A stretch of DNA of 64,000 bases from Candidatus Bathyarchaeia archaeon (GTDB lineage Archaea; Thermoproteota; Bathyarchaeia; Bathyarchaeales; Bathycorpusculaceae): contig JBEKTQ010000004.1 in assembly GCA_049515895.1 (NCBI GenBank), positions 64,001 to 128,000 of the forward strand, given 5' to 3'. Positions within the stretch are counted from its first letter, which is position 1, and each line of letters begins with the position of its first letter. Under the pieces are notes generated by a model. It saw only the letters and a list, made by a program, of their open reading frames with translations. It searched no databases and was not told the origin of the DNA. Shown here piece after piece: positions 27,227 to 30,654 of this stretch. The translations under genes and the position numbers were made by a program.

Positions 27227-28105
27227 TTGAAATTTGGAATAATGACTCGGAATCCCGAAGCATGGAGCAGCACACAAGTTCGGGAAGCATTAACCAAACG
27301 AGGCATCCCATACGAATGCTTTACTTTTCCACGGATCGTCGCGAGGCTAGCATACAAACCCTACTTCAAAGTCAACAGCACCAGCCTCTTGGACGATTTA
27401 GACGCCCTTATCATTCGTCCCATTGGACGCGGCTCGTTGGAGGAGCTGGTTTTCCGAATGGACATGCTCTACAAGCTTGAGCGTCAAGGCTTCTACATGG
27501 TGAATCCTCCGGCGGCAATAGAGCATTGTGTTGATAAATACGACATCCTTGCTCTCCTTGAGGATATTGGCGTTCCCGTCCCACGCACCCTGGCAACTGA
27601 AAGCGTCAACGAAGCACTCAAAGCATTCAACGAGTTGGGTGGTGATATCGTTGTTAAACCTATTTTTGGCTCACGCGGGCAAGGCGCAACTCGGGTTAAC
27701 GACGTAGACATCGCCGATACCATTTTCAAAGCCATTACGTTCCACCATGGCGTCATTTACATGCAGGAATTCGTTCCTCATGGGCACTCGGATATTCGAG
27801 CCTTCGTAATCGGCGATCGGGTAGTCTCATCTATGCGGCGGGTTGCCGAAGGCTGGAAAACCAATTACAGCAGAGGGGCCAAACCTGCCGCAGCTGAAAT
27901 CAGCAAAGAATTTGAAGACTTAGCCATAAAATCAGCTAAGGCGGTGGGCTGTAAAATCGCGGGAGTGGATATCCTTGAAGGACCAGAAGGGCCGCGGATT
28001 GTAGATGTCAACAGCCAGCCAGGGTGGAAAGGACTGCAAGCGGTTGCCAAAGTTAATATCGCTGAAGAAATAGTTAGTTTTGTTTTGTCTGAACTGAAAA
28101 AATAA
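27227..28105 (+). CDS. RimK-family ATP-grasp alpha-L-glutamate ligase (MptN/CofF-like)
   Basis: VVKPIFGSRGQG, QEFV, DIRAFV, WKTNYSRG, AGVDIL, VNSQPGW. Confidence 0.85.
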   Translation: MKFGIMTRNPEAWSSTQVREALTKRGIPYECFTFPRIVARLAYKPYFKVNSTSLLDDLDALIIRPIGRGSLEELVFRMDMLYKLERQGFYMVNPPAAIEHCVDKYDILALLEDIGVPVPRTLATESVNEALKAFNELGGDIVVKPIFGSRGQGATRVNDVDIADTIFKAITFHHGVIYMQEFVPHGHSDIRAFVIGDRVVSSMRRVAEGWKTNYSRGAKPAAAEISKEFEDLAIKSAKAVGCKIAGVDILEGPEGPRIVDVNSQPGWKGLQAVAKVNIAEEIVSFVLSELKK

Positions 28106-28107
28106 GA

Positions 28108-29103
28108 TTATTTCTCGGAAACTATCAAGTTGTAAGGGTCAATGGGAACTTCGGGGAAAGGCATTTCCTCTTTGTGCTTAACCATAACTCGCTCTTTTTC
28201 AGTGAATTCTCCTATAAAATAAGCCGTAAGCCCATTTTGCCTCAATGTTTCCATTACTTTTTTCGTCGCTTGAAAGTCCACCGCTACTAAAACAGTCCCT
28301 GTTGAAGACATAGATAGAACCTGCTCATCGCTAAGTCTGAAGTGGTTCTGTAAGGAAAGTACTTCGCGTGAAAACGCGAGTTTTTCCCAGTCCACTCTAA
28401 AACCAACTCCTGACGCTTCAGCAAGCTCGTTTAAAGCGGCTACAACCCCGCCTTCAGTGGCATCATGCATCGCATGGACCCCGCCGGTTTTAGCCAGCTG
28501 CAGCGCTTCGGAAACGCAGCTTTGCATGCGAACCATCCCTGAAAATTTTTCCTGCACTTCTGCTCCGAACAGGTCCCTCGCCAGCTCCTTTTGGATCAGA
28601 GCAAAGTTGATTACCGTTTCTAAACCGAGCGGCTTGGTGCACAAAATGAGGTCGCCTGGCTTAGCATTTGCCGGCGTAATCAGTTTCTCCAAGTTCACTG
28701 TCCCATAAACTGTAGCGACGCCGACCAAGCCTTGAAGGCTATCATACATACCGGTGTGTCCTCGAACAATCGCGATGTCAAGTTCAACTGCTGCTTGGCA
28801 GGTTTGCTTCATAATTTTTTGAAAAACTTCTGGTTTTGTTGAGCGTGGCCCAAGCAGGTTGATTGTACAAAATTGGGGTTTGGCACCTGACAGGGCAACG
28901 TCTGAGGCGGCGTAGTTGATCAGCAAGTAACCAAACCATTCTTCAGGAACGCCTGTGCACGGGTCAGACGCAACAACCATATATTTGCCGTCTACTTCGT
29001 GAACGCCTGAATCGTAGCCAATCATGGGTGGAATGACTACTCTGGAATCCTCCTTGATGCAGCTTAGAATTTTTTGTAGTTCTTGGTCTGGCAGTTTACC
29101 CAT
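28108..29103 (-). CDS. AIR synthase/ThiL/HypE-superfamily protein
   Basis: MGKL, ASDP, SDVALSGA, RGHT, AMHDATEGG; 10 nt downstream of thiT. Confidence 0.82.
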   Translation of the reverse strand: MGKLPDQELQKILSCIKEDSRVVIPPMIGYDSGVHEVDGKYMVVASDPCTGVPEEWFGYLLINYAASDVALSGAKPQFCTINLLGPRSTKPEVFQKIMKQTCQAAVELDIAIVRGHTGMYDSLQGLVGVATVYGTVNLEKLITPANAKPGDLILCTKPLGLETVINFALIQKELARDLFGAEVQEKFSGMVRMQSCVSEALQLAKTGGVHAMHDATEGGVVAALNELAEASGVGFRVDWEKLAFSREVLSLQNHFRLSDEQVLSMSSTGTVLVAVDFQATKKVMETLRQNGLTAYFIGEFTEKERVMVKHKEEMPFPEVPIDPYNLIVSEK

Positions 29104-29113
29104 GTTTTATCCA

Positions 29114-29713
29114 TCATAAGCGGTAGTCAAGGGTTCCTCTTTTTATCAGAATTGTCATCACTACGGCGCTAATAATGTATTCTACTATGAGGAAGCTGCC
29201 ATTATAGATGGCTGGAAAAATCCATCTTCCGTATGCGGGAAACGCATAAACGTAATACCAAACGAATACGCCTGCGAAATAGTGAACGAGGAATCTTAGG
29301 AAAACAGCGATGCCAGCGCCGACAAGGGCAAGACGAACGGTTTTGTTGTGAAATAAGCTGGTTAACATGCCTGTTAGCCCAATTAACCCAAAAGCTACAG
29401 GGTACTCGAACACTGCTTGGACGGGAGTGGCAACTACCGCTGAAGCTCCAAGAGAAAGCACATCGATTAACAAAGCAATTGCGCCAAATATTGCTCCTGT
29501 TATCAATCCCACACGGATACCTCGCCTAATAGACAGCCACATTGTTGGAACCATGCTACCCAGAGTCACGGCGCCACCATAAGGCAATGAAAATGGTCTA
29601 AGAGCATACAACACGGCTGATAGAGCCGAAAAAACAGCAATTTCCGCAAGAATTTTTGTTTGGAATATAGTATTAGATTTTTCAGTTATGTTATCTGATT
29701 TAGGTTGGTTCAA
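29114..29713 (-). CDS. thiT: ECF-type thiamine transporter S component
   Basis: LPYGGAVTL.SMVP, PVQAVFEYPVAF, RFLVHYFAGVFVW, YNGS. Likely TTG start at 29713; the ATG at 29734 lies inside the riboswitch. Confidence 0.9.
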   Translation of the reverse strand: MNQPKSDNITEKSNTIFQTKILAEIAVFSALSAVLYALRPFSLPYGGAVTLGSMVPTMWLSIRRGIRVGLITGAIFGAIALLIDVLSLGASAVVATPVQAVFEYPVAFGLIGLTGMLTSLFHNKTVRLALVGAGIAVFLRFLVHYFAGVFVWYYVYAFPAYGRWIFPAIYNGSFLIVEYIISAVVMTILIKRGTLDYRL

Positions 29714-29718
29714 TTTTT

Positions 29719-29809
29719 TTCCCTCCGCCAGCATTACCTGGTTCAGGTTCTAAGGGTCGACAGCGACTAGCCGTCCTCTCAGCCGGGTCTACTCCCAGCT
29801 CCCCGAGAA
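29719..29809 (-). ncRNA. TPP (thiamine pyrophosphate) riboswitch
   Basis: Minus strand TTCTC-GGGG-A-GCTGGG..CCCGGC-TGAGA-G-GACGGC..GCTGTC-GACCC-TTAGAACCTGAACCAGGTAATGCTGGCGGAGGGAA; all THI-box landmarks present, directly upstream of thiT. Confidence 0.93.
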
Positions 29810-29904
29810 CATCTTAATGGGATAATGTTTTTAGGATATATTTTAGTTTTCCTACCCGGAAACTTTAACCCGTTAGAAGCAAAGTGGAATCTGAGGCTTG
29901 AAGC

Positions 29905-30654
29905 ATGAGCAGCAAGGCAAAAAAGAGAGTTGGCTTGATTGGGTGCGGAGCAATCGGCACTGTCCTAGCTGAAGCTATCGAGCGGAAACTCGTTGTATGC
30001 GACGAACTGGTTGTCTACGACGTTGACGACTCAAGAGCACAAATGCTCAAGGGCGCCCTCAAGTTTCCAGTGGTAATAGCAAAAAGCGTGGATGAACTTC
30101 TCTCTTTAAAGCCGAAGGTTGTTGTGGAAGCTGCGTCGCAGCAGGCTGCTAAGGAATATGTGCCGAAAATCGTTTCCTCAGGAGCCGAGGTGATTGTGAT
30201 GAGCACGGGTGCCCTGCTCGGCCTGGCGGTTGACTTAAGACGGGTTCACGTTCCTTCTGGCGCCATCGGCGGTTTAGATGCTCTTTCCAGCGCCGCTTTA
30301 GCAGGCGTTGACGAGGTTATTTTGACTTCACGAAAAAACCCCAAAGCACTTGGCAAAGATAATGCAGTTGAGGCAGTTGTTTACGAGGGCTTTGCGGAGG
30401 AAGCGGCGAAGTTATTTCCAAGAGAAATGAATGTTGCTGCCACTTTAGCGTTGACTGTTAATCCAGCCAAGGTAAAAGTGCTAGTAGTATCAGACCCGGC
30501 TGTCAAACGGAACACACATGAAATTCAGGTTAAATGGCGATTCGGCAAGATGTTTCTGCGTTTTGCAAATGATCCGCATCCAGACAACCCGCATACCAGT
30601 GCATTAGCCGCCTGGTCAGCTATCAAACTCCTGCGGACTCTTCTGGAAACCTAA
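29905..30654 (+). CDS. nadX: L-aspartate dehydrogenase
   Basis: GCGAIG, VVEAAS, MSTGAL, PSGAIGGLD, FPREMNVAA, RNTHEI, NPHTSALAA. Confidence 0.88.
   Translation: MSSKAKKRVGLIGCGAIGTVLAEAIERKLVVCDELVVYDVDDSRAQMLKGALKFPVVIAKSVDELLSLKPKVVVEAASQQAAKEYVPKIVSSGAEVIVMSTGALLGLAVDLRRVHVPSGAIGGLDALSSAALAGVDEVILTSRKNPKALGKDNAVEAVVYEGFAEEAAKLFPREMNVAATLALTVNPAKVKVLVVSDPAVKRNTHEIQVKWRFGKMFLRFANDPHPDNPHTSALAAWSAIKLLRTLLET

Follow-up and report, generated by a model that had tools for sequence, protein, structure and literature searches.

A 2024 review (PMC10907184) sorts riboswitches into three mechanistic groups, direct occlusion, interdomain docking and strand exchange. For the last of these it gives the thiamine pyrophosphate (TPP) riboswitch as an outstanding example, and it adds that one aptamer class may belong to several of the groups. 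The archaeal riboswitches counted in McCown et al. (2017) number 79 in Euryarchaeota, six in Crenarchaeota and one each in Korarchaeota and Thaumarchaeota, with none entered for Bathyarchaeia, and archaea are described there as using riboswitches sparingly. TPP elements before transporter genes of Thermoplasma and Ferroplasma are cited in a 2019 preprint (bioRxiv 10.1101/538918), and a 2021 paper presents the fluoride riboswitch of Thermococcus kodakarensis as the sole natural archaeal riboswitch determined experimentally. The subject of this study is a TPP riboswitch that directly precedes thiT, the gene for the substrate-binding (S) component of a thiamine transporter of the energy-coupling factor (ECF) type. 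Both lie in a 64,000-nucleotide stretch of the genome of a Candidatus Bathyarchaeia archaeon (assembly GCA_049515895.1, contig JBEKTQ010000004.1, positions 64,001 to 128,000), which is called the window below and in which all unqualified positions are counted.

The 3′ strand of helix P4 in this aptamer reads GGAGG, and the thiT start codon follows after 8 nt. The analysis establishes the aptamer, its position and the conservation of this arrangement in related loci. The element is probably a translational OFF switch in which direct occlusion takes the place of a separate expression platform; its transcript would bind TPP, begin just ahead of the aptamer and lose its access to ribosomes in the bound state. 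The platform-less architecture with its poorly formed P1 helix is the point of interest, as the element is common in the lineage.

The TPP aptamer and the thiT ribosome-binding site

The whole window was scanned with cmscan against the covariance models of all Rfam 15 families. Two matches reached their gathering scores, one to a tRNA and one to the TPP family RF00059. The latter covers the full model (1-105 of 105) on the minus strand from 29815 to 29703 and scores 63.1 bits (gathering score 54.3, E = 5e-10). An initial annotation, made from the letters of the sequence, had described a THI-box at 29711-29809 and proposed an Infernal comparison with RF00059; its coordinates fall within the full-length match, and the score clears the cut-off. 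The "extra hairpin" of that description is P3a (29775-29759), an element of the Rfam consensus. A whole-genome search gave this single TPP match in the assembly (3,184,081 bases in 53 contigs, marker completeness 100%). By the covariance model the element is a canonical TPP aptamer, and it would be expected to bind TPP. The features of the locus are as follows.

29836-29850, minus strand: putative promoter box resembling a B recognition element (BRE) and TATA box (AAAACTAAAATATAT), from the sequence and a same-genus comparison
29703-29815, minus strand: TPP riboswitch aptamer, full-length RF00059 match
29759-29804, minus strand: pyrimidine-sensor arm with P2 (GGG/CCC), P3 (AGCUGGG/CCCGGCU), the CUGAGA motif and P3a, from the RF00059 alignment and the sequence
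29782-29777, minus strand: CUGAGA motif of the pyrimidine-sensor arm, from the sequence
29775-29759, minus strand: P3a hairpin, from the sequence and the Rfam consensus
29722-29747, minus strand: pyrophosphate-sensor arm P4/P5 (CCUGAACCAGGUAAUGCUGGCGGAGG), from the RF00059 alignment and the sequence
29748-29720, minus strand: thi-box ACCUGA...GCG.AGGGA of the pyrophosphate-sensor arm, from the sequence
29726-29720, minus strand: GGAGGGA, from the sequence
29722-29726, minus strand: predicted Shine-Dalgarno sequence GGAGG, the P4 3′ strand, from the sequence, the genome-wide Shine-Dalgarno peak and the 16S 3′ end
29714-29721, minus strand: 8-nt A-rich spacer (GAAAAAAA), nominally the junction and the P1 3′ strand, from the Rfam register and the sequence
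29114-29713, minus strand: thiT, ECF-type thiamine transporter S component, 199 residues from TTG 29713, from PF09515 and a structure match
28108-29103, minus strand: gene of the aminoimidazole ribonucleotide (AIR) synthase family (PurM superfamily), 331 residues, from the Pfam domains AIRS and AIRS_C

The ligand-contact motifs, CUGAGA in one arm and ACCUGA...GCG.AGGGA in the other, are present here and invariant in 48 related sequences. They hold the nucleotides that we take to contact TPP, as assigned after the published thiM and Arabidopsis structures. The P4/P5 arm folds as an isolated hairpin with -8.0 kcal/mol.

The initial annotation had the aptamer overlapping the ribosome-binding site, and P4 indeed supplies it, as the GGAGG at 29726-29722. 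Because TTG starts 8 nt past GGAGG, no room is left for a separate expression platform, as had also been noted. No terminator-like site or oligo-T stretch was found between the aptamer and the start codon, so that transcriptional control is disfavored. As in the direct-occlusion group defined by the review (PMC10907184), the ribosome-binding site lies within the aptamer and no separate platform follows it.

The use of Shine-Dalgarno sites was surveyed upstream of the first start codon in 1494 frames from the genome of the window, each running from stop to stop over 250 codons or more. GGAGG was present at -18 to -4 in 72 cases versus 6 in a control window inside the open reading frame (ORF), and GGAG in 225 versus 54. 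The thiT GGAGG, with its first base at -13, falls inside the genome-wide peak of GGAG/GAGG motif starts (-15 to -11). The small-subunit rRNA gene was not found in the assembly of the window. The 16S gene ends in GGATCACCTCCT in two of the three same-genus genomes examined, and the CCUCC near the 16S 3′ end of same-genus genomes is complementary to the thiT GGAGG.

The TTG codon (29713-29711) follows a run of seven A's and is in frame with the 199-residue ThiT ORF. Its product matches Pfam PF09515 (Thia_YuaJ) with 114.5 bits (cut-off 25.8) and falls narrowly under the cut-off of the NCBIfam equivalog TIGR02357 (107.4 bits, cut-off 108.45). Its alignment with 3rlb, the structure of Lactococcus lactis ThiT, spans nearly the whole protein (E = 5.3e-14, residues 12-192 on 11-182). 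Genes of the EcfT/CbiQ family, the energizing module, are encoded in the same genome. Seven loci were returned for the ThiT protein. Six hold relatives at 63-90% identity, and for five of the six the record bears the title Candidatus Bathyarchaeia or Bathyarchaeota archaeon, in support of the host class suggested in the initial annotation; the seventh, in a Pseudoalteromonas record, is a weak match of 40% identity over 61 residues. The sixth, a 4-kb contig titled Candidatus Acidiferrales bacterium (L035), carries a Bathyarchaeia-type unit of riboswitch, thiT and AIRS-family gene, with a ThiT protein 69% identical to this one, and is probably mis-binned archaeal DNA.

The promoter box recurs in the genus. 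A box of AAAAC(T/C) followed by an A/T run begins 48 to 42 nt 5′ of the P2 GGGG in 19 of 23 same-genus loci. Archaeal transcription starts at a regular spacing from the TATA box, and this rule predicts a start near 29815, the point at which the Rfam match opens and which the initial annotation had proposed. A search for sequencing runs over 28900-30100 returned none of RNA. The 5′ leader of about 100 nt would then be almost wholly aptamer. A scan for bacterial-type (sigma-70) promoters returned no site, which is uninformative as the DNA is archaeal.

Conservation and distribution of the arrangement

Of 76 fetched loci, 72 contain aptamers by their core motifs, 74 aptamers in all, and the first downstream ORF of 69 was run against Pfam. 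ThiT accounted for 43 of the 69. The first in-frame start codon lies 3-10 nt past AGGGA in 41 of these 43 (22 ATG, 14 GTG and 5 TTG), and CGGAGGGA is present in 36. The two exceptional ThiT loci have offsets of 34 and 95 nt. Locus L024 (genome G035, positions 1597-1700), which is of the 95-nt type, has one extra A in its A-run, ACG in the place of ATG or GTG, and an in-frame stop; its start region reflects either a homopolymer assembly error or a broken start.

The same geometry emerged from a class sample drawn evenly to 151 genomes, the genome of the window included. Judged from coordinates, a TPP match stands directly upstream on the same strand for 64 of the 74 ThiT matches, and in 59 of these 64 pairs the end of the Rfam match is 15-60 nt from the beginning of the Pfam match. 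Because 41 of 43 start offsets and 59 of 64 gaps are short, the platform-less arrangement is the norm for thiT in Bathyarchaeia.

Short arrangements also precede five of nine ThiW genes (six counting a 12-nt offset) and two of three RibU-like S components. They precede none of three ThiC genes, none of two CytX-like permeases and at most one of six solute-binding proteins. These last three gene types have longer spacers, of 30-116 nt before the genes for solute-binding proteins, and the long-spacer archaeal relatives have a clear P1 of 6-7 bp. Rfam writes one position of its consensus (CGuAGGGA) with a lower-case u. A G at this place, which makes GGAGG, was found in 40 of 49 short-spacer versus 8 of 20 long-spacer loci, a tendency only, because many of the loci are close kin.

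Several loci vary the theme. On a complete Bathyarchaeia chromosome record two TPP aptamers (L034, 5-143 and 1359-1513) lie about 1.3 kb apart, and each abuts its own ECF S-component gene, first that of a RibU-like PF07155 protein and then that of ThiT. RibU-like S components are also found 3′ of the riboswitch in L005 and L009. A thiC leader from the same family (L051, 1590-1690) has CGGAGGGA, 6 nt and then an ATG that opens a 14-codon upstream ORF (ATG to TAG); the thiC start comes about 84 nt past the aptamer, after a T-rich stretch and a second GGAGG. The direct-occlusion module may here gate a leader peptide rather than the ThiC enzyme. In another class of the phylum, long-spacer TPP riboswitches with a strong 7-bp P1 precede genes for solute-binding proteins (L068-L071 and L074). 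The spacers of L068, L070, L071 and L074 share a conserved pyrimidine-rich, GCTCCTTCT-like stretch, which could pair with the aptamer GGAGGGA or with the downstream ribosome site. These four would be classical strand-exchange platforms within the same phylum.

The 48 short-spacer aptamers were aligned with MAFFT. RNAalifold recovered P2, P3, P3a, P4 and P5 from this alignment as 22 pairs, nine of them with changes on both sides. In these helices 98.8-100% of the alignment cells are paired, with 100% in P4 and P5. Two-sided changes that keep pairing occur in eight pairs of the pyrimidine-sensor arm helices (29759-29804). P2 and P4 are invariant and carry no covariation information either way. 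When the full structure with P1 is scored, 15 of 28 pairs change on both sides versus 9.1 in shuffles and 4-7 with slid partners, and 89.3% of cells are paired versus 84.9% in shuffles and 33-55% with slid partners.

P1 is degenerate in the short-spacer aptamers. A conserved P1 was sought in the fixed Rfam register, in shifted registers and by free duplex folding, and nothing emerged beyond U-rich and A-rich composition. The minimum-free-energy pairing of the 5′ flank (GUUCU) with the junction (AGAAC) was considered as a conserved anti-aptamer and rejected, as it is impossible in those relatives whose flank reads GGTCTC or TAATTC.

The element is retained among close relatives. One RF00059 match each was found in 34 of 36 other genomes of the genus, and the two that lack it have completeness values of 58% and 65%. 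Within the order, 8 of 24 genomes from other families carry a match. A survey of Bathyarchaeia, which the initial annotation had suggested, put 92 of the 151 genomes of the class sample and 48 of 79 genera at or above the cut-off, and single genomes hold as many as four matches. When 151 genomes were drawn from the phylum, 29 had a match over the cut-off. For genomes of the phylum outside the class the count at E ≤ 0.001 is 20 of 131, mostly in four families and including one that is under the cut-off. TPP riboswitches are thus routine in Bathyarchaeia. The initial annotation had called archaeal TPP riboswitches rare, and this holds for the literature examined and fails for genomes, both in the class (92/151) and in the rest of the phylum (20/131). 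No paper on riboswitches in Bathyarchaeia was found in a search of mostly non-subscription journals. The survey revises the view of archaea as sparing users of riboswitches, and Bathyarchaeia are among the most abundant archaeal classes of sediments.

PF09515 itself exceeds its cut-off in 71 of the 151 class-sample genomes. Three of 14 named control genomes have it, those of Bacillus subtilis, Thermotoga maritima and Lactococcus lactis; the four archaea among the 14 do not. The initial annotation had suggested that the riboswitch was possibly acquired along with a Firmicutes-type thiT. Within the class the riboswitch and thiT travel together, a pattern that fits old residence as well as old transfer.

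Proposed mechanism and its alternatives

Direct occlusion would proceed as follows. Transcription from the BRE/TATA promoter would begin only a few nucleotides 5′ of the aptamer. At low TPP the small ribosomal subunit could open P4, which is weak with its 3 bp, and the degenerate P1, and ThiT and the co-transcribed AIR-synthase-family protein would be made. Bound TPP would lock the two sensor arms together, with the CG bulge beside GGAGG presumably helping to hold the pyrophosphate, a role taken from published structures of thiM. The folded aptamer would then hold GGAGG and the short spacer, and initiation would be blocked. Sequestration of the Shine-Dalgarno sequence would, on this model, be direct. 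Feedback of TPP on uptake is physiologically sensible, because thiT encodes a thiamine importer and a profile search of the genome detected no TPK, no ThiN and neither ThiE nor ThiD over cut-off.

A number of observations weigh against this mechanism, and several concern P1. Three of five P1 pairs are standard in the Rfam register at this locus, and 51.7% of P1 cells are paired across the 48 relatives. Duplexes between the flanks average -1.83 kcal/mol versus -1.93 kcal/mol with shuffled 5′ flanks (39 loci). Because P1 is degenerate, ligand affinity could be low. The whole 141-nt region folds little better than shuffled sequence (z = -1.60), and the canonical secondary structure has -26.3 kcal/mol versus -40.1 kcal/mol for the non-conserved alternative with the 5′ flank on the junction, in nearest-neighbor energies that omit the ligand and tertiary contacts. 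In the ligand-free ensemble predicted with ViennaRNA the five bases of GGAGG are unpaired with probabilities of 0.21, 0.23, 0.81, 0.61 and 0.03, while the start codon and the spacer, apart from its first base at 0.38, are open (0.76-1.0). Secondary structure cannot judge how this accessibility would change upon ligand binding. The GGAGGGA sequence is mostly fixed by the aptamer itself, and its conservation alone is no proof of a ribosome-binding role. Seven of the 43 ThiT loci lack GGAGG and read CGA or CGT before AGGGA, so a perfect Shine-Dalgarno sequence is not obligatory.

Some of these points are shared by other explanations. The aptamer is predicted at the extreme 5′ end of the transcript, where bound TPP might alter mRNA lifetime, for example through the access of a 5′-end-dependent RNase, or cause early transcription arrest, and leave ribosome access unaffected. 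The partial pairing of GGAGG without ligand would suit such a mode of action, and experimental guidance from the literature examined is limited to a single natural riboswitch of archaea. This explanation is unlikely, given the lack of an oligo-T or terminator-like site between aptamer and start codon and the use that the genome makes of Shine-Dalgarno sites at such a distance. The 3-10 nt between AGGGA and the start in 41 of 43 loci is predicted by ribosome occlusion and is unneeded for the control of decay.

Occlusion might instead fall mainly on the start codon and spacer by way of P1, with TPP closing the junction and the 5′ flank lying on the spacer and first codons. Relative L040 has what this requires, a 10-bp P1 of -11.9 kcal/mol that spans the spacer and the start codon. 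The best flank duplex reaches the start codon in 28 of 39 loci, and in the window GUUC (29810-29807) can pair with GAAC (29711-29708). Across those loci, however, the duplexes are no stronger than the shuffled ones, no single P1 register is conserved, and the pairing is mostly that of a U-rich strand on an A-rich strand, all of which make this version quite unlikely.

The degenerate P1 and the partly paired Shine-Dalgarno sequence would also be expected of a decaying riboswitch, a conserved leader with an eroded P1, little or no regulatory range and a ribosome site that is always partly masked. Such decay is very unlikely. The TPP-contacting motifs and P2-P5 are invariant or co-varying across genera and families, and the retention of the element in 34 of 36 same-genus genomes and before 64 of 74 ThiT genes of the class would be difficult to account for if ligand sensing were not under selection.

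That thiT starts at the in-frame ATG in loop L5 (29734-29732), which would make part of the aptamer coding, is scarcely credible: the automatic ORF list opens a 206-residue ORF there and the closest relative (L031) shares the ATG, but L5 reads TAATAC in most relatives and so has no ATG at that place, no Shine-Dalgarno site precedes ATG 29734, the PF09515 match begins only at residue 29 of the longer ORF, and it is the TTG start that brings the N terminus into line with L. lactis ThiT (residue 12 versus 11). The comparison with relatives supports TTG 29713 as the start.

Direct occlusion of the ribosome site in P4, if it operates as proposed, would be a direct-occlusion form of a riboswitch class so far described as strand exchange. 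The design is near-minimal, a promoter, a 100-nt aptamer that includes the ribosome site, and a start codon. The locus offers a clean object for asking whether a ligand-locked structure alone gates archaeal translation initiation. It could also serve as a compact part for archaeal genetic tools.

The linked gene and comparison with known riboswitches

The AIR-synthase-family gene begins 10 nt past the thiT stop and is probably part of the same riboswitch-controlled operon. Its product scored under the cut-offs for SelD (92.1 bits, cut-off 125), HypE (86.4 bits, cut-off 251.6) and ThiL (TIGR01379, 85.3 bits, cut-off 184.15). A true ThiL is encoded on another contig (C10, 261 bits) and is 27% identical to the 28108-29103 protein over 196 residues. 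The genome also has true SelD and HypE genes at other places, together with one more unassigned paralogue. Homologues of the protein are labeled "hydrogenase maturation factor" or "AIR synthase-related protein", and the ESM Atlas gave nothing specific for it.

The gene follows thiT closely in its distribution. A tblastn search placed it 3′ of thiT, with at least 47% identity, in 35 further loci among those fetched. Orthologues at this level (at least 47%) occur in 30 genomes of the class sample, with a separate tier of paralogues at 30-36%. ThiT is present in 30 of the 30 orthologue-bearing genomes, and in 29 the two genes lie on the same contig and strand within about 2 kb, as judged by eye. 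Three genomes of the same family without ThiT hold only the lower-tier paralogue, and two of the three have the riboswitch before thiC.

The genome looks dependent on imported thiamine and has no known enzyme to carry out the first phosphorylation. The gene context makes the AIR-synthase-family protein a candidate thiamine-phosphorylating salvage enzyme. No link between this gene and the thiamine regulon was found in the literature, searched in mostly non-subscription journals. The wider proposition has two parts: that ThiT, ThiW and RibU-like genes of Bathyarchaeia and some other Thermoproteota are under a minimal, platform-less and P1-poor direct-occlusion TPP riboswitch, and that the protein encoded in the operon is the missing thiamine-phosphorylating enzyme. 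Taken jointly the two are a tentative and rather doubtful proposal. If it is correct, the linked enzyme would serve archaea that lack TPK, ThiN, ThiE and ThiD, and the gene points to a possible undescribed step of thiamine salvage in vitamin-dependent archaea.

Beyond the operon lies a plus-strand gene (27227-28105) for a RimK-family glutamate ligase nearest to MptN (267.8 bits, under the cut-off of 350). The divergent neighbor on the other side (29905-30654, plus strand) encodes the aspartate dehydrogenase NadX (TIGR03855, 210.6 bits, cut-off 206.55). NadX and an MptN-like RimK-family protein as neighbors fit an archaeal host, as does the BRE/TATA-like box in a promoter region that lacks a sigma-70 pattern.

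No direct-occlusion TPP riboswitch was found in the literature, searched in mostly non-subscription journals, where the review PMC10907184 was the one paper that bears on the grouping. The described systems nearest to the Bathyarchaeia element each share part of its design. The Thermoplasma and Ferroplasma elements, as cited in the preprint (bioRxiv 10.1101/538918), belong to the same aptamer class, are archaeal and precede membrane transporter genes of the thiamine regulon. They differ in host, and the present element has its ribosome site in P4 with no platform after it. The L. lactis thiT riboswitch (RSthiT) is likewise a TPP riboswitch directly upstream of a ThiT-family gene. Regulation there depends on a U-stretch ahead of the start codon that was interpreted as an intrinsic terminator, whereas the archaeal element has no such stretch.

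Riboswitches of the E. coli thiM type have the same aptamer, and their presumed output is also the hiding of a ribosome-binding site by TPP. The thiM riboswitch has a separate downstream platform with partner-swapping strands, for which there is no sequence at this locus. In its proposed mechanism the Bathyarchaeia element resembles SAM-II, SAM-III and preQ1-I/II, which the review (PMC10907184) assigns to direct occlusion; in these, too, the ribosome-binding site is in the aptamer and the sensor is the platform. These are other aptamer classes with other folds and are biochemically supported, whereas the Bathyarchaeia element, known from its sequence, would bring the TPP aptamer to the same solution.

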